Shown: positions 4,780 to 20,211, counted from the first letter of the stretch. The stretch: DNA of 64,000 nucleotides from Planctomycetia bacterium (GCA_012269595.1 JAAXJX010000005.1:143472-207471); one strand, 5' to 3'. Notes: generated by a model from the sequence alone, not told the origin. Made by a program: numbers and translations.

Positions 4780-5013
4780 GGGACCTCTTTCCGAAAATGA
4801 CTTCGGGTAACTCGGCCCGATTACCGCCTGAAGAATCCTCAGGAAGGTTCAATCCGGGGATCAGGTTGGGAAGGACAAAAAATCCTGAACCCCTCTTAAA
4901 TGCGGCTTATTGGCCAATTGACGCTTCCATTTGACAAGAAATTCATGATTTGATTACCGTATGGGCGTTCGGGCACGGTCGCCGCGGTGTCCCGGGCAGG
5001 GATCGAGGGAATC

Positions 5014-5199
5014 ATGGGGAACTGGACGAACTCCGTAATCTGCGGACTCATCGGTGCAGTGGTGGGATGTGTGGCCTACTTCCTGGTCAACAAAGTGGTG
5101 GCAGACATGGATCTGTTCACTGCGGTCGGAATCGCCTCCTTCTTTGGAGCGTTCTTCTCGAACGTCTTCACTGCCAACAAGGAGCAGATTCCCGCCTGA
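5014..5199 (+). CDS. Small two-TM membrane protein
   Basis: GAGGGA precedes the ATG at 5014. MGNWTNSVICGLIGAVVGCVAYFLV...AVGIASFFGAFFSNVF gives two hydrophobic helices. A terminator follows. Confidence 0.45.
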   Translation: MGNWTNSVICGLIGAVVGCVAYFLVNKVVADMDLFTAVGIASFFGAFFSNVFTANKEQIPA

Positions 5200-5223
5200 T
5201 CAGGTTGGATCTGTTGAAGTTGG

Positions 5224-5257
5224 AAGCCCCTCCGGAAATCCGGGGGGGCTTTTTTTG
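5224..5257 (+). terminator. Rho-independent terminator
   Basis: AAGCCCCTCCGG-AAAT-CCGGGGGGGCTT hairpin followed by a T-run. Confidence 0.75.
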
Positions 5258-5378
5258 TTGGCCAGTCAAAGATTTACAGATGAATCAGCCCCGTGAGTGT
5301 CCCTCAATCGGCGCGAGGGATAAACTGCTCCTGAAACAATACGACCTCGGTTAACTGCTTACTCGGGCGGGATGAAAG

Positions 5379-7592
5379 ATGGTCCTGATCATGATGACGA
5401 CACTGTATGCAATGGGACTCGATGGCGAAGCGGGTGGCGATCCCCAAACCGGTGGTTGGAGATTGAGGGACAGTCCGAGTGCCTATTTGAGAGAACATGC
5501 CGAAAATCCGGTGGAGTGGTGGACTTGGGGCGATGAGGCCTTTGAGGCCGCCCGCGATCTCGATCGCCCGGTGTTTTTGTCGATCGGATATTCCAGCTGC
5601 CACTGGTGTCATGTGATGCGCCGGGAGTCTTTTTCCGATCCTGCGATTGCCGCTTTTCTGAATGCACATTTCATTTCCATCAAGGTGGATCGTGAAGATC
5701 AACCCCATGTGGACGAGGTTTACATGGACGCGGTGAGAGCGATGACGGGTGGAGGGGGGTGGCCACTCTCTGCATTCCTGTTGCCGGATGGAAAGCCATT
5801 TTATGGAGGAACCTATTTTCCACCGCGTCAGCGCTTTAATCGGCCGGGTTTCCTGGAGCTGATCTCTTCGATTGAGAAAGCCTGGCGTGAAGACCGCGCC
5901 CGCATGCAGGAGAGTGCAGAGGGACTGATCGAACACCTTGAGGGCCGGGAAAACAGGGTTCATGAAGGTCAGACCCTGGACTTATTCCTCTCAGGAGGGG
6001 TCCAGACCGCCTCAGCTACCTACACCGCCAACCCCGCCGGTTTCGGACAGGCTCCGAGGTTTCCTGCACCGAGATTTCTGGAGTTTCTTGCCGGTGAAGG
6101 TTTGTCCACGCAGGACATACCCACCGTCAATCGCTCTCTGGCAGTGCTTCGGGAAATGGGGCGTGGAGGAATTCTTGACCAGGTAGGTGGCGGATTCCAT
6201 CGATACAGTGTGGATGCTGCATGGCAGGTCCCTCACTTCGAAAAGATGCTCTACAACCAGGGCTCATTGGCAGAAAGTTATCTTGAAGTGGGTCGAATGA
6301 CCGGTGAAAGCGACTTGCTGGAGACTGGAAAAAATGTACTCGATGCAATGTTGAAACAATTCCAACTGGAAGATGGCAGCTTTGCCAGTTCCTGGGATGC
6401 CGACTCCGGTGGGGTGGAAGGATCCTATTACGTCTGGACCCCTGATCAGGTGAATGAGTTGTTACCTGAGGGTGTTGCAAAGAACGTCTGCGAATATCTG
6501 GGGATTTCTGAAGACGGAAATTTTGAAGAACTGGAGGCCAGTGTTCCCAGGCAGGCGGTGACCTATGAAGCCCTCTCACAGTCCTCTGGTTTATCGGTGG
6601 GTGAGTTGCGGAAACAAGTCGAGGATGGAATTGCCCAACTCCTTGAAGCAAGAGAATCACGGGTTGCACCAAAACGGGATGACAAGGTTATTCTTGGCTG
6701 GAATGCGCTTTCGATTTCAGGGCTTGCCCGAGGCGCAGCGATTCTGGGAGAAACCCGGTTTGCGGATGAGGCCAGGAGAGCCCACTCTGCGGTGGCCGCA
6801 GCGATGGTCACAAAAGACGGCTTTCTCCGGCGAGTCGATCACTTTGTCGAATCAGATGGAAGCCACAGCAGAATCGCAGGAAACGCGGCCACCCTTCAGG
6901 ATGCTGCGCTCTGGGTGAAATGCTGCCTTGATTTGTACGAAGCGACCTTCGATTCCCAATTCCTTCAATCAGCAGAGGAGGCGGTGAATCTTGTTCAACA
7001 AGAGTTTGGTCTCCTCGAAGAAGGTCATGGATTCTATGAAGCCCCCAACAGTATCCAACTCGTGGTCGATCGACGTCGTGACTACTTTGATGGGGCATTG
7101 CCCTCCGGGAATGCGACGATGGCGCGCAATCTTTTGCGTATGTATGAACTCACCGGAAATGCGGACCATGAAGAAACGGCCCTCCATTTGGTGACAGCCT
7201 CGTTGGAGCGAGTGGGTCCCTACCCAATGGGTGCGGCAGAGTTGTTGCTGGCCGTTCAATCTGTTTCCAGGGGGACACCGGTGGTGGCTATCGTAGGAGA
7301 TCCCGACTTGGCAGAAACCCGGGAGATGATCCGCGCTGCCCGCAATTGTCGGGTACCCCAAGTGGTGATCGCCTTCCGATCCGACATGAATGGCGATTCG
7401 GATAGCGGAGTCGTTCCGGTGTTGAAGGGGAGAAATTCGAAGGAAGGCAAACCGCTGGCATATTTGTGCATCGATCAGGTCTGCGAAGTTCCTTTTGAAA
7501 ATGTGGGGGAATTGACCCTGCGACTCTCCGAATTGGAAAAACGCTCAGGGTCCCAGTCGGCACAATCCAGCGGGAAAGAGTCTGGCGAATGA
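5379..7592 (+). CDS. Thioredoxin-domain protein, YyaL/DUF255 family (N-acylglucosamine 2-epimerase-like fold)
   Basis: SAYLREHAENPVEWWTWGDEAFEAARDLDRPVFLSIGYSSCHWCHVMRRESF...ISIKVDREDQPHVDEVYM is the family signature with the CxxC. The start could also be one of the ATGs at 5391-5412. Confidence 0.85.
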   Translation: MVLIMMTTLYAMGLDGEAGGDPQTGGWRLRDSPSAYLREHAENPVEWWTWGDEAFEAARDLDRPVFLSIGYSSCHWCHVMRRESFSDPAIAAFLNAHFISIKVDREDQPHVDEVYMDAVRAMTGGGGWPLSAFLLPDGKPFYGGTYFPPRQRFNRPGFLELISSIEKAWREDRARMQESAEGLIEHLEGRENRVHEGQTLDLFLSGGVQTASATYTANPAGFGQAPRFPAPRFLEFLAGEGLSTQDIPTVNRSLAVLREMGRGGILDQVGGGFHRYSVDAAWQVPHFEKMLYNQGSLAESYLEVGRMTGESDLLETGKNVLDAMLKQFQLEDGSFASSWDADSGGVEGSYYVWTPDQVNELLPEGVAKNVCEYLGISEDGNFEELEASVPRQAVTYEALSQSSGLSVGELRKQVEDGIAQLLEARESRVAPKRDDKVILGWNALSISGLARGAAILGETRFADEARRAHSAVAAAMVTKDGFLRRVDHFVESDGSHSRIAGNAATLQDAALWVKCCLDLYEATFDSQFLQSAEEAVNLVQQEFGLLEEGHGFYEAPNSIQLVVDRRRDYFDGALPSGNATMARNLLRMYELTGNADHEETALHLVTASLERVGPYPMGAAELLLAVQSVSRGTPVVAIVGDPDLAETREMIRAARNCRVPQVVIAFRSDMNGDSDSGVVPVLKGRNSKEGKPLAYLCIDQVCEVPFENVGELTLRLSELEKRSGSQSAQSSGKESGE

Positions 7593-8074
7593 GTGAGGCT
7601 CAGGGTCAAGGACGACACAAGGCGAGTGTCCGCATTGTCGTCGATGCGGACGGTTGTCCCGTGAAGGACGAAGTTGCGAAAGTGGCCAAGAGGCTGGATC
7701 TGCCGGTGATTTTTGTTGCCAATCGATCGATGCGCATCCCTCAAGGGAAGGGATTTCGATTGGAAGTGGTTCCTGAGTTGTTTGACGCCGCTGACGACTG
7801 GATCGCTGAAAACTGTGATTCCCGAACAGTGGTTGTTTGCTGTGATATTCCCCTTGCCTCCCGTTGTGTTGCGGCAGGAGCAAACGTCGTTGATCCACGG
7901 GGGCGAATTCTGGATGAGGAATCGGTGGGGGAGGCGTTGGCCCGAAGGGATCTCTCGACCCACCTCCGGGACCTGGGATTACCCACAAAAGGGCCGGCCC
8001 CGTTTACTCCGCGGGATCGTTCCAGTTTTCTGCAGGCGATGGATCGGGTCTTGCAGCCCTTGCTTCGCGATTAG
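7589..8074 (+). CDS. YaiI/YqxD family protein (DUF188, UPF0178)
   Basis: IVVDADGCPVKDEV...VIFVAN...DAADDWIAENCDSRTVVVCCDIPLASRCV. ATGA overlap with the upstream stop. Confidence 0.75.
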   Translation: MSEAQGQGRHKASVRIVVDADGCPVKDEVAKVAKRLDLPVIFVANRSMRIPQGKGFRLEVVPELFDAADDWIAENCDSRTVVVCCDIPLASRCVAAGANVVDPRGRILDEESVGEALARRDLSTHLRDLGLPTKGPAPFTPRDRSSFLQAMDRVLQPLLRD

Positions 8075-9093
8075 CAACCCTGGTGAGGGATCAGGCACTC
8101 CAGTGGGTCCGTGGTGGTGTCTTCTCCACAGGTGCTGTGAGGATCGGCAGGAGGAGCTCCTCCTGTAAACAGATATCCCAGTAACAGAACCGCATCCGCA
8201 ATATCGACCACTCCATTGTCGTCAATATCACTGCTGTCCATACAGCCCGGCTCTGCGCCACCGGTAAAGAGGTATCCCAGCATGTTGATGGAATCGCTGA
8301 GATCGATGGCGCCGTCACCGCCGACGTCTCCGCGTCTGAACGGAGTTCCTGACAGGTCTGGATATACCAGTTCACAGGAAACAAAGGACAGTGAAAACTC
8401 AACACTGAATGCATCGAGAACACCGTCTCCATCGAGATCCGTGTCGACCACGATTCCCACAAACTCGAGTACCTGGGTCATGGTGTCGTAGTTGAAAGGA
8501 AAACCGTCAAAAGGAAATGGGGCGGGGATGGCATCGAACAGTTCTGCGGGAATCGCAGTGGGAATCCCTGGTGTGACCGCCGCAGATCCACCCGGTTCGA
8601 TGGTCAGATCCAGGGTGACTCCCGGAAGGGAGATTCCACCCGGTCCCTGAAGATCTGCAGGGCCTGCGCTCAGTTCTCCACCGACGATGGAGCCAGATTC
8701 AAAGAGGACCAATGGTTGTCCATTGTCATCGACACTTTCGGGAGTGACTTCAAACAGATTGTTGCCACTGAAGTTGTTGGTTTCATCTCCGTCGACGTCC
8801 ACCCCGAGAACGGAGGCCACAGAGATGGCGTCATCGTTCTGCATCTGAGGGTCATCCAGCTCGCGGATCTCAAGGAGATTGAATTGGGGACTGGCCCCAA
8901 TCTGGCTCTGGAGTATGGGGTCAAGAAGTGCGGAGGCGGGCTCCAGTGCTCCCCCTGTGATACTGATTCCCGAGTTCACAAACGCGTCCTCGATCGGCTC
9001 ACCGGAATGAACCACCGGAAAAACACAGAGGAGCAGGAGAAGGCAAGAAAATGCAGAGGGCAGTTTGTTGCGCACGGGGTTTCCAATCTTCAA
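8071..9093 (-). CDS. Secreted protein of unknown function with a C-terminal dockerin-like module and Cys tail
   Basis: The ORF is open to the ATG at 9228. That start puts about 50 non-signal residues before the signal peptide and leaves only 30 bp to the divergent gene. TTG 9093 (MKIGNPVRNKLPSAFSCLLLLLCVFPVVHSG) or GTG 9075 gives a proper signal peptide. Start uncertain. Confidence 0.6.
   Translation of the reverse strand: MKIGNPVRNKLPSAFSCLLLLLCVFPVVHSGEPIEDAFVNSGISITGGALEPASALLDPILQSQIGASPQFNLLEIRELDDPQMQNDDAISVASVLGVDVDGDETNNFSGNNLFEVTPESVDDNGQPLVLFESGSIVGGELSAGPADLQGPGGISLPGVTLDLTIEPGGSAAVTPGIPTAIPAELFDAIPAPFPFDGFPFNYDTMTQVLEFVGIVVDTDLDGDGVLDAFSVEFSLSFVSCELVYPDLSGTPFRRGDVGGDGAIDLSDSINMLGYLFTGGAEPGCMDSSDIDDNGVVDIADAVLLLGYLFTGGAPPADPHSTCGEDTTTDPLECLIPHQGC
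8074..8340 (-). other. Dockerin-like duplicated EF-hand module plus Cys tail
   Basis: FRRGDVGGDGAIDLSDSINMLGYLFTGGAEPGCMDSSDIDDNGVVDIADAVLLLGYLFTGGAPPADPHSTCGEDTTTDPLECLIPHQGC-stop. Confidence 0.75.
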
Positions 9094-9258
9094 TTTCGGA
9101 GATCTGGCAAAGTGCCCAAATGTCGTGAAAGAAGGACTTACAGACCAACTACCAGAATAGCGTTGGGAAGAGGCAGGGGATACCCCCGGGGTCGAGTTGG
9201 CGATATCAGCGGATATGATAGAGAACACAGCGGAAGTTTTTTCCGGGAGGAGAATCCT

Positions 9259-11952
9259 GTGGCAGAACCACGTTCACTTATCCGACTTCTTTTGACTCTG
9301 ATCCTGTTCTCGCTGATCGGACTGAGGGGCCCAGTGGCTCAATCTGCTGATATTCCCTTCGTCAGGGGAGACGCCAACGTCGATGGCTCCGTCAATCTCT
9401 CCGATGGAATCTGGCTCCTTCAGCATCTGTTTCAATCAGGGCCCGGTGGAGACTGCTTTGCAGCAAGAGACTTCAATGCGGACGGCACCGTGGACCTTGC
9501 GGATGCCTTGTCGATTATCCAGTTTCAATTATTGGATGGAGCGGCGCCCAGGCATCCCTATCCCCATTGCGGAGACTCCGCCATCGGAGATTGTCAAAGC
9601 TATCCCGTATGCCCGGAAGTTTCTGACGTAACGGTTAACCGTGACGAATTTGGAGTCTGGCATATCGAGGGTGGAACACTTTTCGAACTGTATGAGGCCT
9701 TTGGTTACGAAGTCGCTGTCGATCGATTGTGGCAGATGGAATATTACCGCCGACTTTGTACAGGAACTCTCTCTGAAATTTATGGGCCAGATCAAATCTC
9801 AACTGACATCAGTATTCGCATCCTGGGTTACTCAGATGAAGAGTACATGGAGGGATATCAGGGAATCTCAGAGAGAGCTCAGGAATTGGTGCAGGGATAT
9901 CTCGCAGGAATCAATCGTCGCATCTCTGAAATCGACCAGGACTCCTCACTCCTTCCCTATGAGTTTGTCGAGTTCGGTTTTTCTCCTGCTCCATGGACCG
10001 TCATTGACATGATGGCACTCCAGGTGACCCTGCTCAGAAATTTCGATTCGGAAGCGCTTTCAACTCACCAACTGAATAACGCAGTACTGTTGGCAGAGCT
10101 TCAGGAAAGTCATCCTGAGGATGGCCTGGCGATGTTCAACGATCTTCGTTGGTTGGATGATCCGGATGCCCCGACGATGATTCCACCTTCTGGTGGAGCC
10201 TCCGGTTTCCTTCCCCAGACAACTTCTCTCCCTGTGCCTCAGGCAGGGCAGTACCAGTTGGACAACCTTCGAGCCTTGCGAGATGGTGTTCACGACATTT
10301 TTGAGGGGACGCGCGAGCGTATCTCGAATATTGGTACACCTCCGAGAATGGGCAGTTACGCATGGGTCGTCAGTGGCGATCTGACCGATACCGGATTGCC
10401 GATGATCTATGCGGGACCACAGATGGGATTCACGGCTCCCGGTCTGGTGATAGAGGGCTCTTTGCGAGGGGCTGGAATCGATGTATCCGGAATGGCTCTG
10501 GCGGGTTTGCCGGGGATCATCATCGGCCGGACCCCCCGTCATGCGTGGTCCGGTCAGGTTGCTCATGCGCATACCGTGGATATCTACCTTGAGGAAGTAG
10601 AGGATATTTTTCTCCATCGCACTGAGATGATTCCTCTGGGGAATGACCAATTTCTGAACTTGCCGATTTACCGCAGTGTCCACGGTCCCATCGTATCGCC
10701 CATCATTCTCAGCACCGAGAACCTTGAGGGGCCGGTGGCAGCCTGGAAGTATTCTCATTGGAAGAAGGAATTGGCGACAGTGGACGTCAACCTCGATTAC
10801 GTCCTTGCCCGCAATATGGATGATTTTGCTGATGCAATGGACCGCTTCTGCGTAAGCCTTCATGTCTGCTATGCCGATCGGCGCGGCAATGTGGGCTACT
10901 GGATGTCCGGTCTGGATCCGGTTCGGACAGAGGGGGCAGATCCACGCCTTCCACAGTTGGGGGATGGCTCGATGGAGTGGACTGACCCTGTGACCTACAA
11001 GGAGCGAATCACGGTCGAAAACCCTGAACGCGGTTGGATCGCTGGTTGGAACAACAAGGCCGCTGAAGGTGAGGCGGGTGGTGCGAGCCCTGGTCACGCA
11101 TATGGTCGATTCCACAGGGCGCATGCGATGCAAGATCGAATGGAAGATGCTGTGGCAAATGGACCCGTCAGCTATGAATTCGTTCGAGATCTCGCACTGG
11201 AAGTCAGTGCCACCGATTGTTGCAATTTGGGGAACAAGGGCGGAAACCGCTGGTTTTTTGTCGATCAATTTTTCACGAGTTCGGTCGAGGCGGATCTCAA
11301 TCCGGATCGATTGGCTGCCCTGGAACTCCTGGAAAGTTGGGACGGCTATTTTGTCGAGGGTGGTCCAGAGGGTTGGATCGAAAATACCGTCAATGCTGAT
11401 GCCTGGGTTCTTCAGGAAAACTGGATCAACAGGATGATCGAACTGGTGTTTGAAGATGAACTCAATACCGAGACCCTCGGTTGGAATAATCAGGACAGAA
11501 ATTTGCTGTTCAATGTTCTGCTGCGAGCCTTGCCGGGAAATCAGCCGCAGTTGGCCAATCAAATTAATTGGTTCGAAGATCGTGGGGCTGGGTTCAAGCC
11601 GACAGATCCTGCTGAGTTGGCAGTTCTCGCTTTGGATCTCACGTTGACAGAGTTGGGACCGAGACCCTGGAATCAACCCCGAGCGACCATCGACTATGTG
11701 GCTGAAAGCAGTCTGGGTTTGGTCTGGAGTGCTCCCTGGCTGAACAGGTCTACCTATGCCCAGGTTGTTGAAATGGGTTCGGAGGGACCGGTGAGAATTG
11801 AATCGATGATTCCACTCGGTCAATCCGGCGATGTTCGCGTTGGACCATCCGGTGAGCCGGTTTTCGATGAGCAATACTTTGGGTTTACCGAAGTTTTTGA
11901 CGGATTCCTTCACCGTCCTTTCCCACTCTTTACCGGTGAAACATCCGATTGA
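9259..11952 (+). CDS. Penicillin/AHL acylase family Ntn hydrolase (peptidase S45) with an N-terminal dockerin-like module
   Basis: The ORF track opens at 8716, but that part is antisense to the previous gene. The GTG at 9259 has GGGAGGAG 7 nt upstream and gives signal peptide LIRLLLTLILFSLIGLRGPVAQSA. Acylase motifs: GVWHIEG...AVDRLWQME (alpha chain) and PRMG-SYAWVVSG (candidate beta-chain N-terminal Ser, codon at 10354). Confidence 0.8.
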   Translation: MAEPRSLIRLLLTLILFSLIGLRGPVAQSADIPFVRGDANVDGSVNLSDGIWLLQHLFQSGPGGDCFAARDFNADGTVDLADALSIIQFQLLDGAAPRHPYPHCGDSAIGDCQSYPVCPEVSDVTVNRDEFGVWHIEGGTLFELYEAFGYEVAVDRLWQMEYYRRLCTGTLSEIYGPDQISTDISIRILGYSDEEYMEGYQGISERAQELVQGYLAGINRRISEIDQDSSLLPYEFVEFGFSPAPWTVIDMMALQVTLLRNFDSEALSTHQLNNAVLLAELQESHPEDGLAMFNDLRWLDDPDAPTMIPPSGGASGFLPQTTSLPVPQAGQYQLDNLRALRDGVHDIFEGTRERISNIGTPPRMGSYAWVVSGDLTDTGLPMIYAGPQMGFTAPGLVIEGSLRGAGIDVSGMALAGLPGIIIGRTPRHAWSGQVAHAHTVDIYLEEVEDIFLHRTEMIPLGNDQFLNLPIYRSVHGPIVSPIILSTENLEGPVAAWKYSHWKKELATVDVNLDYVLARNMDDFADAMDRFCVSLHVCYADRRGNVGYWMSGLDPVRTEGADPRLPQLGDGSMEWTDPVTYKERITVENPERGWIAGWNNKAAEGEAGGASPGHAYGRFHRAHAMQDRMEDAVANGPVSYEFVRDLALEVSATDCCNLGNKGGNRWFFVDQFFTSSVEADLNPDRLAALELLESWDGYFVEGGPEGWIENTVNADAWVLQENWINRMIELVFEDELNTETLGWNNQDRNLLFNVLLRALPGNQPQLANQINWFEDRGAGFKPTDPAELAVLALDLTLTELGPRPWNQPRATIDYVAESSLGLVWSAPWLNRSTYAQVVEMGSEGPVRIESMIPLGQSGDVRVGPSGEPVFDEQYFGFTEVFDGFLHRPFPLFTGETSD
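9358..9615 (+). other. Dockerin-like duplicated EF-hand module plus Cys segment, in N-terminal position
   Basis: FVRGDANVDGSVNLSDGIWLLQHLFQSGPGGDCFAARDFNADGTVDLADALSIIQFQLLDGAAPRHPYPHCGDSAIGDCQSYPVCP. Confidence 0.75.
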
Positions 11953-12902
11953 AGAATTGCCTCGGAGTTCTTCTTCTGCTGGTGATGCTGGGGTGCCAAA
12001 CCTCATGGATCGCTTCCAATGCCAGTGGGGTGGTCTCCCGTATGGCGGGATCCAGAACACCCAACGAGTTGCTATCGGAAGACGAACTTCCCGCCGGATG
12101 GCGTTCTGCATTGGAAGAGTTGCCGCTTCTGCTCAACTTCGCAAAAGAGGCGGGGCTCAATGTTGGGGGCGCCTACCAGAGGATCGATGTCGATCGTGAT
12201 CCGGTCAGTTACATCGTGGTTGCCGCCAATCCCCGGAATCTTGAGCTTCACCATTGGGACTTTCCCGTTGTGGGGATGGCCCCCTACAAGGGGTATCGAT
12301 TTCTGGAGCACGCGGAAGAGGAAAAAAACAGGCTGTTGGCTGAAGATATGATCGCCGAAGTCTATCCAGTTTCAGCATTCAGCAGTCTGGGTTGGTTTCC
12401 GGAGACGTTGCCAGGCGGTGTGCTGTCACTTCCCGCTACCCAGAGAGTTCGACTTATTTTTCATGAGTTGGTGCATCGGACGATCTTTTTCAATGGAAGA
12501 GCAGACCTGAATGAGAGTCTTGCCAATCACTTCGGAAACTTGCTCGCCCGGCGCTGGTTTGAGGAAGCAGAGGGAAAGAACGGAATTCACCTGCTGTTGC
12601 TGGATCGGGAGATTCAGGATGAAGAGACCCTGCGAGAGCACTTGTATCAGCTGCAGAAAAGTTGGAGTCCGCAAACTGTTACAGAAGAGTTGGCAGCACT
12701 CTCCCTCACACTTGAGCAAGAGTCATGGATGTCCCAAATGGGGCAACAAAATTCTGTCCGAAAGTGGACCCTTCCCACGATACTGATGTGGCAGGTCTAC
12801 GATGCGGGGGCATGGCCCTGGCAAGAACTCTGGCAGGAATGCGATCAGGACTTCCAGGTCCTGAAATGGCGGATTCGCCAGGATTTTCCCGGAACCCCCT
12901 GA
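11949..12902 (+). CDS. Predicted zinc aminopeptidase (DUF2265-like), probable lipoprotein
   Basis: The TTG start overlaps the upstream TGA. N-terminus MKNCLGVLLLLVMLGC is lipobox-like. IFHELVHRT is an HExxH motif, followed by NESLANHFG. Confidence 0.65.
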   Translation: MKNCLGVLLLLVMLGCQTSWIASNASGVVSRMAGSRTPNELLSEDELPAGWRSALEELPLLLNFAKEAGLNVGGAYQRIDVDRDPVSYIVVAANPRNLELHHWDFPVVGMAPYKGYRFLEHAEEEKNRLLAEDMIAEVYPVSAFSSLGWFPETLPGGVLSLPATQRVRLIFHELVHRTIFFNGRADLNESLANHFGNLLARRWFEEAEGKNGIHLLLLDREIQDEETLREHLYQLQKSWSPQTVTEELAALSLTLEQESWMSQMGQQNSVRKWTLPTILMWQVYDAGAWPWQELWQECDQDFQVLKWRIRQDFPGTP

Positions 12903-13027
12903 TATCAGGTCTCGTTGCTTGGATGTCGACTCTGGAGAGTTGTTGGGCTCTCTGGGGTGGCTGAAGGGCGAGGAAGGCCCTGTTCCCCGTATCTGGACAG
13001 GCTTCTGACCCGCAGAAAGGGAGATCC

Positions 13028-13600
13028 ATGAACAGGAAAAGCGAAACACTGAGACACTCGTTCGAGGAGGTCTTCATGCCCTATCTCGACGATGTCTTTC
13101 GCTTCTCACTGGGTCTGACACGAAATCGGGCCCAGGCGGAAGATCTGGTCCAGGATACTTACATGAAGGCCTTCAAGGCATTTCCGACCTTCAGGTCCGG
13201 GAGCAATGCCAAATCATGGCTCTTCAGGATTTGTAAAAACCATTTCATTGACCGGTACCGGGTGAAAGCTCGCAGGCCCGTCCATCAATCACTGGCTGCG
13301 GATGTTGCCACTGCGGATGCCCGTCATTCCGTTCAGGTTTTTGAACGGGATGGGATTGAAAATGAAGAGACTTTTTTGGATCTTTTCGGTGACGAAGTAA
13401 ATCGGTTTCTCCGGGAGTTGCCCGAGGATTTCCGAAGGGCTTTGTTGTTGTGTGATCTTGAGGGGTTGCGTTACGACGAAATCGCAGAGGTTCTCGACAT
13501 TCCAGTGGGAACGGTGCGATCACGGATTTCCAGGGCTCGCGCATTCTTGCGAGAGCGTTTGGAGAGTTACGCGACAGAACTGGGATACGGCAAGGGATAA
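13028..13600 (+). CDS. ECF (group IV) sigma-70 family RNA polymerase sigma factor
   Basis: AGGGAG SD. Region 2: AEDLVQDTYMKAFKAF...WLFRICKNHFIDRYR. Region 4: LPEDFRRALLLCDLEGLRYDEIAEVLDIPVGTVRSRISRAR. Confidence 0.9.
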   Translation: MNRKSETLRHSFEEVFMPYLDDVFRFSLGLTRNRAQAEDLVQDTYMKAFKAFPTFRSGSNAKSWLFRICKNHFIDRYRVKARRPVHQSLAADVATADARHSVQVFERDGIENEETFLDLFGDEVNRFLRELPEDFRRALLLCDLEGLRYDEIAEVLDIPVGTVRSRISRARAFLRERLESYATELGYGKG

Positions 13601-13619
13601 CGGACAGGAATCTGGGCTC

Positions 13620-14423
13620 ATGAACGATTGTATCCGCTATCAGGAGAAGCTTCACGATTGGGTGGATCAGGAACTCGATCTGCCGACCAGTGAAGAAATT
13701 CAGCTTCATTTGTCCCAGTGTCCTCAATGCGCTGATGCCGCCAAGGGCATCCAGCACATGAAAGAACTGGTTCGCAGTAAAGCCTGGAAACCGGATGCAC
13801 CCGTAAGCTTGCAGCAGGGAGTAAAAGAGATGCTGGCCGTGGAATCCGCACGTCAGCCTCAATACCGTTGGTCCGGAAGAACCATTTTGCCTCTTGCGGC
13901 AACAGCAGCCTTGATTCTTGTCCTTTTGACCCCTGGGTTCTTTGATCCAGGGGTTTCGAATTCCCAGTTGGATGCAAAAGTGATCAGCGAACCGGTGTTT
14001 AATTCCCACCTTCAATCGATGAGTGGGGATGACAAGCCGGAGTCCCTTTTCAGATCTTCAACGGAGGCATCCCGTTATGTATCCAAGCTCCTGAACTGTG
14101 CAGTGCTGGTTCCCGAGTTTGAAAATTTCAATCTTTGGGGCGTTTCGGTTCTGGAGGTTGGAAAACATGAGATTCCAAAGGTGTTTTACAAAGGGGCAGA
14201 TTCCCATCTGTCCCTTTTTCTTGTGGGTTTGAAGTATGAGAGTTTCTCAGGAATCCACACTCTTCGGGATGGCGTCAAGTTTGCCGTTTATTGCTATCCG
14301 GGTACCAACTATTGCTGTGTTCTTGCCACCTCTGATCACCCCAGTCAGCATTTGCCAGTGATTGGTCACTGCCATTGTCAGGTGAAGAATTGTTTCGCTG
14401 ATTGTGACTGTCACGAAGATTGA
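13620..14423 (+). CDS. Anti-sigma factor (zf-HC2 type), single-pass, with a Cys/His-rich C-terminal tail
   Basis: ATG at 13620, which is in-frame codon 57 of the 13452 ORF. HLSQCPQCADAAKGIQH is the zf-HC2 motif. TM segment ILPLAATAALILVLLTPGFF. Tail HLPVIGHCHCQVKNCFADCDCHED. Confidence 0.8.
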   Translation: MNDCIRYQEKLHDWVDQELDLPTSEEIQLHLSQCPQCADAAKGIQHMKELVRSKAWKPDAPVSLQQGVKEMLAVESARQPQYRWSGRTILPLAATAALILVLLTPGFFDPGVSNSQLDAKVISEPVFNSHLQSMSGDDKPESLFRSSTEASRYVSKLLNCAVLVPEFENFNLWGVSVLEVGKHEIPKVFYKGADSHLSLFLVGLKYESFSGIHTLRDGVKFAVYCYPGTNYCCVLATSDHPSQHLPVIGHCHCQVKNCFADCDCHED

Positions 14424-14591
14424 TCCCCGCTGTTTCAAAATGGGTCGGAAATTTCCGGTACTTGTTTTTGGTCCCCAAATGGGGTGAACTCGCCTTTTTT
14501 CGTACTTCCGGGATCTGATTCTGGTCCCTGATTCGTTTCCATTGCCAAGAAGGCTTGCGACTTTCCCCTTTGAGGATCATTCTCCTTGAGA

Positions 14592-14675
14592 GGGCGAGTG
14601 GCGGAACTGGCAGACGCGGGGGACTTAAAATCCCCTCCCCGTTTGGGGGTCCGGGTTCGATTCCCGGCTCGCCCA
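14592..14675 (+). tRNA. tRNA-Leu (anticodon UAA), CCA not encoded
   Basis: Acceptor GGGCGAG/CTCGCCC. Anticodon arm GGGGA-CTTAAAA-TCCCC. Long variable arm TCCCCGTTTGGGGGT. T-arm CCGGG-TTCGATT-CCCGG. Confidence 0.93.
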
Positions 14676-14702
14676 CACTTTTCCTGGAAGAAGGGAGACT
14701 TC

Positions 14703-15512
14703 ATGTCCCGATTCGGAAATCTTCGGTCGACGGTGTGCATCGCCGCTGGCCTGCTCATTCTTTTTCTTGCCGGCTGTCAAGCCGGAGGTGCGGGAACCCT
14801 GCGTCTTCGGGGAGAGAACTGGTCTCCCAGTCCCGGTGGCGCCATTCGGGCTTCCGACCTGGGATCTGCAGGTGACCTAATCGATCTCGAGGGAGATCTC
14901 GGATTGGGGGAGGAAGAATCCCTCTGGGTCTATGCAGTGGAGAGTGATTTGGGATTGGGAACTGTTGAGGCGACGAGCATCGACTTCACCAGTTCGGGAA
15001 CCAACCTGCTTGCCGGAACTCTCGACTTCGGTGGAGAAATTTTTGAAGCGGGCAGCATTTCCAGTGACCTCAACCTTGAGTTGACGACCATACGCAACAA
15101 AGGTGCTCTCCTGGGCATGGGACCTGTGGGGTTGAAGTATCTATGGGGTGCTGACCATCTGGTTCTTGACTCCACCATCTCCGGATCGGTGGGAGGAACC
15201 GAGACTTCAGTGACCGAAAGCATCGATGAATGGGTTCCGACGATTGGTCTCGGCGCTTCAGTGGGAATCCCCATTGGAAGTGACTGGGGGCTTGAACTGG
15301 ACGCCGAGGTAGCAGGATTGTGGATCAGTTACGGTGATATCGACGGAACCTATCAGGGAACAACCCTGCGTGCAGGCTTGAGACAGGGATCAGGAATGCT
15401 GATCGGTGTGGGTCACAGGTCTCTGATCATTGATATCGAGGATGATGGTTCAGGAACTTCTGCGGATATTGACCTCGGTGGAACCTACCTGTTCCTCGAA
15501 TGGGCCATTTGA
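14703..15512 (+). CDS. Lipoprotein, possibly an outer-membrane beta-barrel type
   Basis: The ATG at 14703 gives MSRFGNLRSTVCIAAGLLILFLAGC (LAGC lipobox). The upstream part of the 14586 ORF reads through the tRNA. Gly/Ser/Thr-rich alternating pattern. Function unknown. Confidence 0.55.
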   Translation: MSRFGNLRSTVCIAAGLLILFLAGCQAGGAGTLRLRGENWSPSPGGAIRASDLGSAGDLIDLEGDLGLGEEESLWVYAVESDLGLGTVEATSIDFTSSGTNLLAGTLDFGGEIFEAGSISSDLNLELTTIRNKGALLGMGPVGLKYLWGADHLVLDSTISGSVGGTETSVTESIDEWVPTIGLGASVGIPIGSDWGLELDAEVAGLWISYGDIDGTYQGTTLRAGLRQGSGMLIGVGHRSLIIDIEDDGSGTSADIDLGGTYLFLEWAI

Positions 15513-15537
15513 ATTTTGAAGTTGTTTTCATAGAAAC

Positions 15538-15577
15538 AAAAAAAGGAGAGTGTCCTGCAGGACACTCTCCTTTTTTT
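15538..15577. terminator. Bidirectional rho-independent terminator
   Basis: A7 - GGAGAGTGTCC-TGCA-GGACACTCTCC - T7, between the convergent stops at 15512 (+) and 15593 (-). Confidence 0.9.
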
Positions 15578-15592
15578 AGATGAATCCCGTCT

Positions 15593-17347
15593 TCAGGGGC
15601 AGCTGACAGCTGCTCCGCAATCAAGACCATCTGCAGTCGGGTCTGGTCCGCATGTCTCAGAGCCGGGCGCGGGCATCGCAGTACCGGAGGAGAAGAGGAA
15701 GGACAGGGTAAAGACCGCGTCTCCAATATCGATGGCGCCATCGTCATTGGAGTCACTGGCATCGAAGCATTCGGGCAATCCGACGCCACCAAAGAGTGCG
15801 GACAGAAGAGAGACCGCATCGCTGATATCGACGGCGCCGTCGAGGTTCCCGTCTCCTCTGCGGAAGAAGGGGTCTTCACAGGCGTCAAGGATTCCATTGC
15901 TGTTGGAATCTCCGTTCTGGGTCAGAATCTGAACCAGATCCCAGGTGCCGTTATTGTCGCAATCTTCCGGAGTCGCCTCATAGACTTGCTCAAGGCCCGA
16001 AAGATCGAATGCATCGACATCCCCATCCTGATCAAGATCGTGCAGTGCACAGGGAGAGTCTGCATTGAAACTGCCCGGTGCATCTCCGGTCCAGCAATCG
16101 ATAAAGCCGGGGAGATCTGCTTCGTTGAGGAAGTTGTTTCCATCCGTGTCGTACTCCCTGCGTCCCAGCGAATCCAGGAATGCGACGACCTTGTCCTGCT
16201 CACTCTTGTCGAGATTGTTCCACGCCTGTTGTGAGGCAAAAGCGTCGCCGTAATGCCAGTTGACGGCATCATTGATTCCCTGATAGGGATCCTGAACGAG
16301 GACACGTCCGTCATGGAGAAGTTGTCCCCGAATTCTGAGACCCCAGAGTGGGGGGGTTTTCATTTCGGTTTCCAGAGCATCTCCCTGGGCAATTCCGTCT
16401 CCCAGTGCGCCCATGTCATGAAGCAGGAAGTCACTGTAGGGACGGAAGGTGACGCCGGACATACCAGCTTCGGGGCTGGTTCCCGTTGTGAACTCAGGGT
16501 GGTGACAGGTCGCACAGCCGATGTCGGTGAAAATCGTTTCACCGGACATGCCACTCCGAGGTGTTTGGGGAGGAGCTGCCAGGAACATCTGGAAGTCCGT
16601 GATCCTTTGCAGGTAGGGGACACCGTTATCCATCGGCTCTTCCGGGTCTGCGACGGAATCGCAGATCGGAAGCAGTGTCGTGTCGCCATTGGGAGCATTC
16701 TCGGCGGCGAGAACACTGTTGGTGATGCCCATTTCCATCAGGGTGGCGTCACCACTGAAGGACATCAGTGTGGCAAGCTGGGATTTCCAACCAAAGCGGC
16801 CGACCGCCAGAGGCGCTGCGGGCGACTCCAGAAGCGGTACCCAGTGAACCATTCCGCCATTGGATTGAAGCGCGACGATATCTGCTCCGTCGACCGCTTC
16901 GATCAAACCCGCTCCGAGGATGGAGGGGGTAATTCGATCCGCGATGATCGTGGCATTGGCGGGAACGATTTCGAGACACTCTGTGGAGATGGCATTGGCC
17001 TGAAGAAGGGATCCACCCTCTGCATCCAGAGGGTCAAAAGGGGCGCCTTTGTCTGCAGCACCAAATCGGGTCACCGTAATGGGACTGGTTCCCCCGATGG
17101 GAAGGGCATGGCATGAGGCACAGGAGTCCTGATTGAATCCAGGGCCGAGGCCCTCTGCTTCACTGAAGGTTCTCAGAAACTGCTCTTTCCCCAGAAAGAA
17201 TCTCTCCAACTGGTCACTGTTCAGAAAGGGGAGAGGATCGCCTGCTTTGGGTTGAGGAGACTGGGCCAAGGCCGAAGTCCCCATCGTCAGGCAACCGAAA
17301 ACCACACAAATGAACAGACCTGCGGTGATATGGATGGATCTCAACAT
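15593..17347 (-). CDS. Di-haem oxidoreductase/peroxidase-like protein (DUF1111 family) fused to EF-hand-like and dockerin-like modules
   Basis: Signal peptide. Two CxxCH motifs (CASCH at aa 76-80, CATCH at aa 278-282). GRFGWKSQ is typical of the DUF1111 family. C-terminal about 185 aa are Asp-rich Ca-loop repeats plus the dockerin module. Confidence 0.8.
   Translation of the reverse strand: MLRSIHITAGLFICVVFGCLTMGTSALAQSPQPKAGDPLPFLNSDQLERFFLGKEQFLRTFSEAEGLGPGFNQDSCASCHALPIGGTSPITVTRFGAADKGAPFDPLDAEGGSLLQANAISTECLEIVPANATIIADRITPSILGAGLIEAVDGADIVALQSNGGMVHWVPLLESPAAPLAVGRFGWKSQLATLMSFSGDATLMEMGITNSVLAAENAPNGDTTLLPICDSVADPEEPMDNGVPYLQRITDFQMFLAAPPQTPRSGMSGETIFTDIGCATCHHPEFTTGTSPEAGMSGVTFRPYSDFLLHDMGALGDGIAQGDALETEMKTPPLWGLRIRGQLLHDGRVLVQDPYQGINDAVNWHYGDAFASQQAWNNLDKSEQDKVVAFLDSLGRREYDTDGNNFLNEADLPGFIDCWTGDAPGSFNADSPCALHDLDQDGDVDAFDLSGLEQVYEATPEDCDNNGTWDLVQILTQNGDSNSNGILDACEDPFFRRGDGNLDGAVDISDAVSLLSALFGGVGLPECFDASDSNDDGAIDIGDAVFTLSFLFSSGTAMPAPGSETCGPDPTADGLDCGAAVSCP
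15596..15865 (-). other. Dockerin-like duplicated EF-hand module plus Cys tail
   Basis: FRRGDGNLDGAVDISDAVSLLSALFGGVGLPECFDASDSNDDGAIDIGDAVFTLSFLFSSGTAMPAPGSETCGPDPTADGLDCGAAVSCP-stop. Confidence 0.8.
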
Positions 17348-17499
17348 GATCTTTCCCTCTATCCCTTGGCCTCAGCGAGGCCGCTCACATAAATGTGCCT
17401 GCAATGCAGGATCACGTAGGTCGCAAGAGAGCCTCGTTTTCCTCCAGGGAAAGCGATTTGCAGATCGGTCAGCACTCCCGCTCTGACCACGTCACCCGC

Positions 17500-17552
17500 A
17501 AAAAAGGGGTACCCCAACTTTCAGAGACATCTCTGAAAGTTGGAAGTACCCC
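17500..17552 (-). terminator. Rho-independent terminator for the FG-GAP gene
   Basis: Minus strand reads GGGGTACTTCCAACTTTCAGAG-ATGT-CTCTGAAAGTTGGGGTACCCC followed by T6. Confidence 0.8.
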
Positions 17553-17643
17553 GGCTCAGGTTTGATCCCGACCCGCAAGCCTGTGGTCAGGCCTGCGGAT
17601 CGGGGGTGTCAAACAGGGTCACCCATGAGGGTGAACCGGGTTG

Positions 17644-20211
17644 TTAAGGACAACCCACGCCACAGTCGAGACTGTCCGCGGTGGGATCCTCACCACAATT
17701 AATCGGCTCGGGAAGCGAGGCTCCGCCGAACAGGAAACTCAGGGCTGCGACGGCGTCGGCAATGTCGATGTTTCCATCGTCATTGGCGTCGGCGGCATCC
17801 TGACAGTTCACTGGTGTCGAGTTGAACAACAGCTGAAGCATGCTGACCGGATCACTGATGTCACGGCTGCCGTCCAGATTGACATCACCCCTTTGGAAGG
17901 TGACGGCTCCGGTTCCGTTGCAACTGGCCTCTTCGATGGTGAAGTCGTCAACTCCAGCCTCGCAGAGGGAGTTGTTCGGTGCATCCGACGCAGTGAATCG
18001 AACCTGAATGTTGGCACTCGGGGTCACGATATCGCTGACCGTGAACTCAAAGCTTTGCCAGGCACTACCGGTACCCAGTGCGCCACCCACTACCAGAGCG
18101 GTGTTCCAGGTTGCCCCACCGTCATTGGAAACGGAGACGACAAAGTCGTCGAGTTGGGACGGATCCGATTCAATGTTGGCGTACCAGAGATTGAAGCGAA
18201 TCGTTGCATCAGTTCCGGCGAGATTCAGGCTCGGACTGATCAGGTGAGCCGGTCCACCGTCGAGGTCCGCACTGCCTGCAGCTCCACCAACAGCACCGTT
18301 ACCAGTGATCCAGCAGAAGTTGCCACTGGCCGGATCTTCGGGCTGGGACTGGATTCCGCCACTGACCGTTCCATTCGGGTTGGCCAGTTCCCATGCACCC
18401 GCGGTCACGGAAGCATCGGTGACGACACTCCAACCACCGACAAGGCCGGTTTCAAAGTCGTCGACAATCTGGCTGAGGCTGTCCGCCACCTGCAAAGTGG
18501 TTGTGGCGGTCGTCTCGGTGACGCCATTGGTCAGCGAAGCACTGACGAACCACGAAATGGTGGAAGTGGCGGTGTTGCCGTCCAGCACACCCTCGTAGTT
18601 GAGTCCTCCGGTTGAGGCCATGGCAGTTTCCACAAAGGCGCCGCCGTCTGCAGAGGTGTGCAATCTGACGGTGGCCTGATCGAGAATTCCTCCACCAAAT
18701 GCTTCAACGCTGACGCTGACCGGAACGGTGTCCGTGCAGGGTACAGAGGTGGGGTTGCTGGGTGAGGCGACGATGTTGAGCCCGATGGGCGCTTCATTCA
18801 TCCACACCTCGGTGCCAGTGCAGGTACCGATGACCATGTCGAGCCAGCCATCACCGTTGATATCGAAGACTGCGACGTCATGGACTCCGTTGGGGCGCCA
18901 GAGAGCACCGTCATTTTCCTGACGGAGGGTCACGTTGGGTGCATCTCCCATGTTGTGGTAGATGTGCATGCGACGGTTACAGCCTGCGATGTCGACGTCA
19001 ACGTCGGTGATGATGACATCGTTCCAGCCGTCATTGTCGAGGTCGGCGATGACCGAGTTGCCGCCAAAGCCATCGTCGCCACCTGCACCGGTACCACCGG
19101 CAAAGTCGTAAAGGAAACGATTGAAGTTGGCGAGTCCGCTGGCGTCATTGCCGTTGTTCAAAAGGTAAGAATCCGCACCGTCGTCGGTGACCACGATGTC
19201 GTTGGCACCGTCATTGTTGAGGTCACCCACCGTGATGTGGTAGGGGGCCATGCTCGGGAAGCTTTCCTTGTGAGCACTGAAGGATCCGATGGCACCATTG
19301 TTGTTGTAAGCCACTCCAACATACTGCGGCGGGTTCAGGGCGGTGTCCTTGATGATGTCCAGGTGGCCATCGCCATTCATGTCGCGGATTGCCGAAGCCA
19401 TTCCAAAGGCAGACTGCTGGAAGGGGAATGGGCTTCCTCCAACGACGATGCTGCCGCTGAAGACCAAAGCCGTTCCGTCGGTAAAGAAACCGTTACCATC
19501 GTTGAGAAGCAGGCGGTCGTTGAAGTCGAGGGTTTGTGCCCCTCCACTGTCGTAGTCACCCATGTACAGATCGAGATCGCCGTCCTCGTCGATGTCACCG
19601 ATGTCCACGGAGCAGAATCGGGGAGCGTGAGGGAAGCCGTTGGCGGCATTGCCCTCGAACTGTTCCATTCTTGCATCCTCGTGGCGGAATCCACCCCATG
19701 TGCCTCCAACGAGGCCAAGGTTCATGTAGATTCGGGGGTAGGAAATGTGCTTGGGCTGGCCATCTGCAAGGGTGATCACGGTCACCATATCGAGCCAACC
19801 GTCATTGTTGAAATCACCCAGCATGACATCACGGTCATTGGTGGGGGTCAGGAAGCCATTGTCTCCCGGGACGTCGGAAGCACTGGCATAAAGACTGGTT
19901 CTGTCGACAAGAACACCGTTCTCATTCATGAAAAGAACGTTGGTCTTGAAGGCACCCACACCACCACTGGTGAAGGGCTGTTTGCGAACGCAGATCAGAT
20001 CGATGTCTCCATCGTTGTCGACGTCACCCCAAATGTAGTCCTTTTCCTCAGGGTCTGAGGTGGAGATCTGGGCATTGGCCGAAATGCGTGTGGCAGTTTC
20101 ATTGGTGAACTGCACCCAGTCCGGCTGGCCGAAGACAGGATTGCTGTTAAAGGCTCCTGGCAACAGCATCAACGCTGCAAACGTAATGGAGAAAAGCGGC
20201 AAAGTGCGCAT
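17644..20211 (-). CDS. Secreted FG-GAP/VCBS-repeat (integrin-alpha-like propeller) protein with a MAM/jelly-roll-like domain and C-terminal dockerin-like module
   Basis: 855 aa with a signal peptide. Seven Ca-loop repeats (DVDNDGDIDL, GDFNNDGWLDM, GDIDEDGDLDL, RDMNGDGHLDI, GDLNNDGANDI, ADLDNDGWNDV, FDINGDGWLDM). DDFETGLVGGWSV...VSVSNDGGATWN...AGVDDFTIEE resembles MAM / choice-of-anchor-J domains. Confidence 0.8.
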   Translation of the reverse strand: MRTLPLFSITFAALMLLPGAFNSNPVFGQPDWVQFTNETATRISANAQISTSDPEEKDYIWGDVDNDGDIDLICVRKQPFTSGGVGAFKTNVLFMNENGVLVDRTSLYASASDVPGDNGFLTPTNDRDVMLGDFNNDGWLDMVTVITLADGQPKHISYPRIYMNLGLVGGTWGGFRHEDARMEQFEGNAANGFPHAPRFCSVDIGDIDEDGDLDLYMGDYDSGGAQTLDFNDRLLLNDGNGFFTDGTALVFSGSIVVGGSPFPFQQSAFGMASAIRDMNGDGHLDIIKDTALNPPQYVGVAYNNNGAIGSFSAHKESFPSMAPYHITVGDLNNDGANDIVVTDDGADSYLLNNGNDASGLANFNRFLYDFAGGTGAGGDDGFGGNSVIADLDNDGWNDVIITDVDVDIAGCNRRMHIYHNMGDAPNVTLRQENDGALWRPNGVHDVAVFDINGDGWLDMVIGTCTGTEVWMNEAPIGLNIVASPSNPTSVPCTDTVPVSVSVEAFGGGILDQATVRLHTSADGGAFVETAMASTGGLNYEGVLDGNTATSTISWFVSASLTNGVTETTATTTLQVADSLSQIVDDFETGLVGGWSVVTDASVTAGAWELANPNGTVSGGIQSQPEDPASGNFCWITGNGAVGGAAGSADLDGGPAHLISPSLNLAGTDATIRFNLWYANIESDPSQLDDFVVSVSNDGGATWNTALVVGGALGTGSAWQSFEFTVSDIVTPSANIQVRFTASDAPNNSLCEAGVDDFTIEEASCNGTGAVTFQRGDVNLDGSRDISDPVSMLQLLFNSTPVNCQDAADANDDGNIDIADAVAALSFLFGGASLPEPINCGEDPTADSLDCGVGCP
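17647..17898 (-). other. Dockerin-like duplicated EF-hand module plus Cys tail
   Basis: FQRGDVNLDGSRDISDPVSMLQLLFNSTPVNCQDAADANDDGNIDIADAVAALSFLFGGASLPEPINCGEDPTADSLDCGVGCP-stop. Confidence 0.8.

Follow-up and report, generated by a model that had tools for sequence, protein, structure and literature searches.

A planctomycete gene cluster encoding a dockerin-tagged acylase, a PF10023 lipoprotein and an ECF sigma/anti-sigma pair, putatively made up of two units of different age

The stretch of DNA analyzed, hereafter the window, spans 64,000 nucleotides of the genome of a Planctomycetia bacterium (GCA_012269595.1, JAAXJX010000005.1:143472-207471). The source genome is a 93%-complete assembly of 2.8 Mb in 60 contigs, and its nearest public relatives are marine Planctomycetota metagenome-assembled genomes (MAGs), as 'Planctomycetia bacterium TMED53' and 'UBA1146'. 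Four genes, all co-directional and tightly packed, reside at positions 9259-14423 of the plus strand, and encode, in this order, an acylase, a PF10023 lipoprotein (hereafter the peptidase), an extracytoplasmic function (ECF) sigma factor and a zinc-binding anti-sigma (ZAS) factor. The original prediction for this region, made by reading the DNA without database searches, had listed the same features; all were found where it had placed them, the sigma ATG at 13028 lying as described 125 bp past the end of the peptidase gene, and its domain assignments (acylase, dockerin, HExxH lipoprotein, ECF sigma, anti-sigma) are correct according to profile searches and translation. The four genes, and the promoter motif found among them, are as follows.

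9259-11952, plus strand: acylase, 897 residues, PF01804; GTG start, TGA stop at 11950-11952
11949-12902, plus strand: zincin lipoprotein of the PF10023 (DUF2265) family; TTG start; assigned by profile match, lipobox and HExxH motif
12891-12916, plus strand: putative ECF-type promoter GGAAC-N17-CGTT, 112 nt before the sigma ATG; identified by alignment of the sequences upstream of sigma
13028-13600, plus strand: ECF sigma factor, PF04542 and PF08281; ATG start, TAA ending at 13600
13620-14423, plus strand: ZAS anti-sigma factor, PF13490; ATG start at 13620

Gene order and upstream sequences make it somewhat probable that the stretch 9259-14423 consists of two adjoining units of different age. 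All the genomes compared are MAGs, and calls of absence are sensitive to contig ends and binning errors. The block 2956-20211 is fully collinear in g1, g5 and g6, three genera within the family, and adjacency of the genes among them therefore says little alone. Genes for peptidase, sigma and anti-sigma are adjacent, with no acylase upstream, in three genera of the same family (g2, g3 and g4), in one genus of a second family (g11) and in one of a third family (g9); in the latter the tRNA-Leu and the lipoprotein found downstream of the cluster also follow in order. In g8 and g10, members of a sister family, peptidase and sigma genes are split by two opposite-strand genes of about 560-680 residues (loci L153, 5885-9608, and L154, 5721-9241). 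In g7 peptidase and sigma genes are adjacent in one of two genomes, the contig of which ends inside the sigma gene, and in the other genome the peptidase gene and the sigma pair are unlinked. Judged from this gene order, the conserved unit is made up by peptidase, sigma and anti-sigma, and is found in three families of the order. Because the trio is kept together without the acylase, the latter would be an addition dating from the ancestor of g1, g5 and g6. An acylase orthologue was not found with the query used in g2, g3 and the second family (f2); in g4 the dockerin-acylase resides on another, short contig, with no peptidase encoded in the 300 bp past its end. QNYK01000051.1 (locus L044), a contig assigned to 'Bacillota bacterium MAG 7', contains the planctomycete block in full (thioredoxin-like gene, YaiI, dockerin protein, acylase, peptidase, sigma and anti-sigma); as it nests inside the planctomycete clade, this contig is probably mis-binned or mislabelled.

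The motif preceding the sigma gene straddles the end of the peptidase gene, the -35 box corresponding to Gly-Thr codons at the gene end, the -10 box lying 11 nt past the stop codon. GGAAC-N17-CGT(T/C) sequences with identical spacing were found in all the 12 orthologous loci, from three genera, with enough upstream sequence. Nine more distant loci, from three families, all carry the motif, with N17 or N18 spacers, 60-90 nt before the sigma orthologue. The 64-kb window contains no relevant match besides the sequence at 12891-12916. By our estimate a chance match in a 200-nt stretch has a probability of about 0.007, and occurrence in 21/21 loci with enough sequence is therefore not due to chance. 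The motif is missing both in the alignment of 13 orthologous regions upstream of the acylase and upstream of the peptidase gene in acylase-less genomes (0/6). The alignments thus point to GGAAC-N17-CGTT as the sigma pair's own, putatively autoregulatory promoter. A genome-wide scan yielded 21 matches vs. 18 in reversed-sequence controls, and the motif alone cannot define a regulon.

The sigma factor contains sigma-2 and sigma-4 regions only (PF04542 and PF08281; TIGR02937, 99.4 bits vs. a cut-off of 42.9). The anti-sigma matches PF13490 (31.7 bits vs. a cut-off of 22.2), features the zinc-binding motif C4...H30-x3-C34-x2-C37, and has one transmembrane helix (residues ~88-108) followed by an outer domain of ~160 residues; its C-terminal part has no match in Pfam. 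Sigma-2/sigma-4 regions, H-x3-C-x2-C residues and a GGAAC...CGTT autoregulatory promoter are found as well in SigR-RsrA, a zinc-binding (ZAS) pair, and in RpoE-RseA-DegS, in which a membrane-bound pair is released by a site-1 protease. Unlike in those systems, the anti-sigma described here is membrane-spanning with an outer domain outside known families, and the gene conserved next to the pair encodes a PF10023 zincin lipoprotein. No description of a PF10023 protein as ECF partner was found in the literature searched. The original prediction had seen acylase and ECF pair as one signalling module. This idea is weakened by the conserved promoter of the pair and the lack of the motif before the acylase, and further because the constant neighbour of the pair over three families is the peptidase, whether the acylase is present or not; at the sequence level, the sigma/anti-sigma pair appears to be an independent unit.

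We know of no PF10023 member that has been characterised. The lipoprotein encoded in the window matches the profile with 129.4 bits vs. a cut-off of 25, over profile positions 6-215 of 322 only. Lipobox Cys16, H172, E173 and H176 (HELVH, 172-176), N188 and E189 are invariant in 24 sequences. The AlphaFold (AF2) model of the protein has a predicted local distance difference test (pLDDT) value of 93. No solved relative was found by sequence, and a Foldseek search with the model returned nothing at E ≤1e-3. A full structural scan with VIA-align gave a coherent list of gluzincins at Z 5-8, including M32 carboxypeptidases, M1 and M61 aminopeptidases, leukotriene A4 hydrolase and thermolysin. An earlier fold-recognition survey places PF10023 likewise, and offers the 'putative aminopeptidase' label as a prediction only (PMC3650047). 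With PF10023 the protein shares the HExxH motif with a downstream Glu, the conserved lipoprotein Cys and the gluzincin-like fold; its residues denote a zincin with an intact site, and aminopeptidase activity is predicted only. The C-terminal third (window 12462-12899) falls outside the profile in exactly the three genera where the block is collinear, scores ranging there from 129 to 153 bits with coverage of positions 2-223 of 322; elsewhere PF10023 proteins score 189-236 bits with coverage 1-312. The remodelled C-terminus goes back to one event in one clade, and no more than hints at a changed role.

Acylase and peptidase genes overlap, the TGA of the first (11950-11952) and the TTG of the second (11949) forming the sequence TTGA. 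The TTGA overlap is found in four diverged species of the genus of the window; in a second genus the ATG of the peptidase gene overlaps the acylase end by 14 nt, and in a third a gap of 70-78 bp separates the genes. The lipobox Cys is invariant throughout this comparison. The retained overlaps support co-transcription and, in two genera, translational coupling. Coupling between acylase and peptidase, already suggested by the original prediction, is thus likely, TTGA being kept in four species and a 14-nt overlap occurring in the second genus.

The acylase is a composite protein. Its parts, and the boxes found upstream of the gene, all on the plus strand, are listed below.

9183-9219, plus strand: upstream boxes, a CCGGGGGTCG-like box and a TATGAT/TACGAT -10-like box, from the alignment of 13 orthologous upstream regions
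9259-9345, plus strand: signal peptide, residues 1-29, with an AQS/A cleavage motif; from translation, N-termini of orthologues being aligned
9355-9612, plus strand: dockerin-like module, residues 33-118; two calcium-binding loops and a tail with four Cys
9619-10188, plus strand: alpha-chain core, residues ~121-310; aligns with alpha subunits of penicillin G acylase at E about 1e-30; pLDDT >90
10189-10353, plus strand: spacer or linker, residues ~311-365, flanked by the regions which align to alpha and beta chains of penicillin G acylase; variable in alignment
10354-11952, plus strand: beta chain, from the nucleophile Ser366 (GSYAW), with WNN(K) at 597-600; from alignment to penicillin G acylase and Foldseek

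The GTG at 9259 is preceded by a strong Shine-Dalgarno sequence, GGGAGGAG, at 9245-9252. The boxes at 9183-9219 may represent a putative housekeeping-type promoter, and do not correspond to the ECF motif; a simple sigma-70 scan of 8900-14800 detected no consensus promoter. The match to PF01804 (E 1.1e-96, 325.9 bits vs. a cut-off of 21.3) aligns residues 123-858 to profile positions 1-645 of 675, and covers alpha and beta parts. The G365-S366 junction (GSYAW) is invariant in 62 homologues, S366 falling on Ser-beta1 of penicillin G acylase (PGA). Q388 and N598 are invariant in the same homologues, and align to Gln-beta23 and to the NWNN stretch of PGA, with which the conserved W597-N598-N599 are aligned. 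The AF2 model obtained from the 62 homologues has a pLDDT of 84, values exceeding 90 in the catalytic core and dropping to 36-66 in the dockerin. The protein is an intact N-terminal nucleophile (Ntn) acylase, for which autoproteolysis and amidase activity are predicted; removal of the spacer during maturation is expected from what is known of the family.

In HMMER searches of the PDB, penicillin G acylases (E 5.7e-52) and D-succinylase (E 1.9e-34) rank first among solved relatives, glutaryl/cephalosporin acylases match weakly, and no N-acyl homoserine lactone (AHL) acylase or PvdQ is found at E ≤1e-3. A Foldseek search of the PDB with the model ranks PGA and D-succinylase highest as well (E 1e-22 to 5e-29, the latter value for D-succinylase), and these matches, with the confident core of the model, assign to the acylase the alpha-beta-beta-alpha fold of the heterodimer. 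Target-normalised template modelling scores (TM-scores) are ~0.8 for PGA beta chains, 0.59 for MacQ and 0.56 for PvdQ, both lying under all PGA chains. The PvdQ equivalog model NF051460 scores 15.7 bits, far under its cut-off of 950. According to both rankings, the acylase sits on the PGA/D-succinylase side of PF01804, and is not PvdQ- or AHL-acylase-like; the framing of the original prediction as an AHL acylase or PvdQ relative does not match these data. The known enzymes nearest to it, the PGAs of E. coli, Kluyvera and Priestia megaterium (PDB 1pnk, 4pel and 6nvw) and the Cupriavidus D-succinylase (PDB 7ea4), share with the acylase family and fold, and the layout of one precursor divided into alpha chain, spacer and beta chain, the last of which starts with the Ser nucleophile; Gln-beta23 and Asn (WNN) positions are further shared with PGA. 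Unlike PGA, the acylase has an N-terminal dockerin, and belongs to a separate branch found in Planctomycetota, Acidobacteriota and Desulfobacterales. In the pocket, according to sequence alignment only, Phe-beta24, Phe-beta57 and Ser-beta67 of PGA are replaced by Met389, Ile422 and Gly432, and the calcium ligand Asp-beta73 aligns, on the same basis, with His438. AHL acylases and PvdQ (PDB 3l94 and 4m1j; MacQ, 5c9i) have in common with the acylase the Ntn superfamily and the logic of self-processing and Ser nucleophile, but are undetected by sequence at E 1e-3 and have TM-scores of 0.56-0.59 vs. 0.8 for PGA. Kluyvera PGA has been reported to hydrolyse C6-C8 AHLs (PMC5474475), and by analogy some AHL activity of the acylase is conceivable, as in some PGA-type enzymes.

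The acylase is about 20% identical to any studied enzyme. Relatives at 41-48% identity reside in Acidobacteriota (many Thermoanaerobaculia), Desulfobacterales and few other bacteria, and planctomycete dockerin-acylases form one clade (support 95) within a branch which is large, unstudied, and next to penicillin G acylase and D-succinylase.

The dockerin-like module of the acylase has two D-x-N-x-D-G-x-V-x-L-x-D loops at residues 38-49 and 71-82 (DANVDGSVNLSD and DFNADGTVDLAD), helices at residues 47-60 and 80-93 of the model, at low pLDDT, and tail cysteines C66, C104, C112 and C118. PF00404 scores 22.6 bits on the whole acylase, against a cut-off of 22.9, and 32.2 bits (E 1.3e-7) on residues 1-130 alone. 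The position of the module, residues 33-118, supports the original prediction in that the dockerin would be retained by the alpha chain after the predicted cut at G365/S366. The same module of ~90 residues, Cys tail included, was found in 119 open reading frames (ORFs) of the 2.8-Mb genome at E 1e-13 to 1e-37, located at the C-terminus in 110, at the N-terminus in about 7, the acylase among them, and internally in 3. An N-terminal dockerin is uncommon in this genome, not unique. The ORF at 32557-33657 of contig C15 carries the module at both ends. The window contains four more dockerin ORFs (2956-4779, 8071-9228, 15593-17347 and 17644-20211). The four had been described as C-terminal carriers, which holds true for three; in 2956-4779 the module spans residues 497-575 of 607.

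The front position of the dockerin can be viewed against the rest of the branch. Among 117 homologues with a complete core, C-terminal extensions, counted past the last conserved motif, have a median length of 0 and a maximum of 19 residues; N-terminal extensions are 9-512 residues long, and cluster near 25, 100-150 and 250-300. Other lineages have a ~250-residue domain or Ig-like repeats at the N-terminal side. The former is conserved and has no Pfam annotation in the Acidobacteriota members P0020, P0030 and P0048 (alignment columns 100-500); in P0112, Big_5 (PF13205) repeats occupy the same place. As every add-on in the 117 homologues is N-terminal, and none C-terminal, the front dockerin fits a rule of the branch.

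Candidate partners of the dockerins are few. Cohesin PF00963 has five weak matches in the genome, the best one scoring 25.1 bits together with its neighbours. These sites (L114-L118; C25:6024-6389, C4:62923-63096, C1:12676-12834, C50:43129-43269 and C49:27034-27207) all reside within ORFs also ending in a dockerin, which are candidate adaptor proteins. For freshwater Planctomycetes, Andrei et al. 2019 (PMC6461901) put forward the hypothesis of a 'planctosome', a non-cellulosomal system of cohesins and dockerins that would degrade peptides. Dockerin-tagged hydrolases (peptidases in the proposal), cohesin-like domains and the lack of a link to cellulose are common to both settings. The planctosome differs in being a hypothesis for a freshwater family; here the tag is found on 119 ORFs, is N-terminal on the acylase, and the cohesin matches are weak. 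The acylase fits the planctosome picture, itself a hypothesis.

The cluster is bounded downstream by the following features.

14444-14496, plus strand: two terminator-like hairpins with T-runs, just past the anti-sigma gene, suggestive by position only
14592-14676, plus strand: tRNA-Leu(taa), bounding the cluster; ARAGORN
14703-15512, plus strand: planctomycete-specific lipoprotein with an LAGC lipobox; from translation and synteny

Terminator-like sites are no more numerous in the region than in shuffled sequences. The tRNA-Leu lies on the plus strand in the genus of the window, and is inverted in two sister genera and in a third family, the order of neighbours being kept. An ORF called at 14586-15512 overlaps the tRNA, and the real start of the lipoprotein is the ATG at 14703. 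The lipoprotein is loosely linked to the sigma/anti-sigma pair over three families, and has no Pfam family; its matches in the Atlas are limited to hypothetical clusters of planctomycetes and a weak lead to an outer-membrane beta-barrel. Its inclusion in the sigma operon was considered and dropped, because tRNA gene and hairpins lie between. On the opposite side, the divergent dockerin gene 8071-9228 (minus strand) probably has its start codon, a TTG near 9093, immediately ahead of the signal peptide, which makes the divergent intergenic region ~165 bp long, not 30 bp. A conserved GGTAGAATGG box, with a TAGAAT -10-like element, is found in orthologues on the minus strand of window positions 9090-9160.

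The interpretation we favour, with a probability of about 0.55, is a model in which an acylase-peptidase transcript (unit A) adjoins an autoregulated ECF pair (unit B). Unit A (9259-12902) would be a two-gene transcript, the acylase being followed by the translationally coupled peptidase. Once secreted, the acylase would self-cleave at Gly365/Ser366, and the alpha chain would keep its N-terminal calcium-dockerin. The dockerin, a tag of ~119 ORFs (secreted proteins), presumably docks its carriers onto cohesin-like partners, and may be found in front because the acylase branch tolerates additions at the N-terminus only. Outside the cytoplasm, the two products may jointly break down N-acylated amino acids or peptides, with the acylase stripping the blocking acyl group, the peptidase then trimming the freed amino end, and unit A would be part of the dockerin-tagged degradative secretome. 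Unit B (12891-14423) would correspond to the autoregulated ECF sigma/zinc-binding anti-sigma pair, driven by the promoter at the end of the peptidase gene. The acylase would have been placed before the older peptidase-sigma-anti-sigma module in the ancestor of the three genera.

A number of results weigh against this model. Adjacency in one family is the sole ground for the 'unblock then trim' scheme, and in that family the whole 17-kb region is syntenic, and acylase and peptidase genes are unlinked in g4. Of 59 acylase-branch loci from other phyla, none lies near a PF10023 gene or has any other conserved neighbour, only shadow ORFs recurring around these loci, and no acylase occurs within ~8 kb of the 12 PF10023 loci compared from other planctomycete families. 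The 'aminopeptidase' label is a prediction (PMC3650047), and the structural matches are middling (Z 5-8). The cohesin-like partners are weak (≤25 bits), and the dockerin part is modelled with low confidence (pLDDT 36-66). No terminator was found between peptidase and sigma genes, and transcription may read through from unit A into unit B.

The peptidase may alternatively be part of the sigma path, where it would act on the anti-sigma outer domain like a site-1 protease, by cutting or conditioning it, or make or destroy the peptide signal sensed by the anti-sigma, the acylase being either a later add-on which feeds or modifies the signal, or a passenger. Such a role is compatible with the persistence of the peptidase-sigma-anti-sigma order in three families in spite of rearranged flanks, but orthologues of the sigma pair are missing around the 12 PF10023 loci from other planctomycete families (in one of them, a partial, weakly similar sigma gene is 7.6 kb away), and the genes are unlinked in genomes G029 and G013. 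The peptidase gene precedes the autoregulated promoter and is not itself preceded by an ECF motif (0/6), and its product would therefore be made whether or not sigma is active, as a component acting upstream should be; lipoprotein and anti-sigma outer domain, moreover, face the same compartment. No PF10023 site-1 protease was found, however, in the literature searched. The remodelled C-terminal third of the peptidase, which coincides exactly with the three genera that gained the acylase, may be read in the same sense, yet is a single event in one clade. On balance we regard a signalling role of the peptidase as unlikely. Its fullest form, according to which the PF10023 lipoprotein is the dedicated outer-compartment protease of the ECF system, and the docked acylase was recruited to it, making N-acylated peptides or lipopeptides inputs of the system, is more doubtful still; if true, it would be a new kind of ECF signalling input module, and the first function for DUF2265.

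Equally doubtful is adjacency without function, in which the genes would be neighbours only by inherited order in a small, slowly rearranging genome. Collinearity of the block 2956-20211 in three genera, and the lack of conserved neighbours of the acylase branch elsewhere, are what this would predict. Retention of stop/start overlaps in two genera, the survival of the peptidase-sigma-anti-sigma trio through flank rearrangements over three families, and a promoter embedded in the end of the peptidase gene do not match it. The least supported alternative, a surface-tethered quorum-quenching or lipopeptide-processing (PvdQ-like) acylase forming with the ECF pair one envelope-signalling module, finds some ground in the close packing of four co-directional genes, in the lack of a terminator before sigma and in the activity reported for Kluyvera PGA on C6-C8 AHLs (PMC5474475), but is very improbable given a PvdQ model score of 15.7 bits vs. 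950, the distance of MacQ and PvdQ by fold and their absence from the sequence matches, the conserved promoter of the sigma pair, missing before the acylase, and the presence of the pair with the peptidase and without the acylase in at least seven genera, the acylase residing elsewhere in g4.

Nothing in the two-unit model overturns current understanding. The acylase joins the dockerin-tagged secretome of Planctomycetota, unusually large in this genome (119 ORFs in 2.8 Mb), and, within the penicillin-acylase family, which is of industrial importance, a large and unstudied branch is placed in marine and sediment bacteria. The restriction of add-ons to the N-terminus throughout this branch may be of use for enzyme engineering and for the reading of domain architectures. 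PF10023 gains its first conserved genomic partner, a putatively autoregulated ECF sigma/anti-sigma pair, and a family of 'function unknown' may thus be given two concrete, testable roles.

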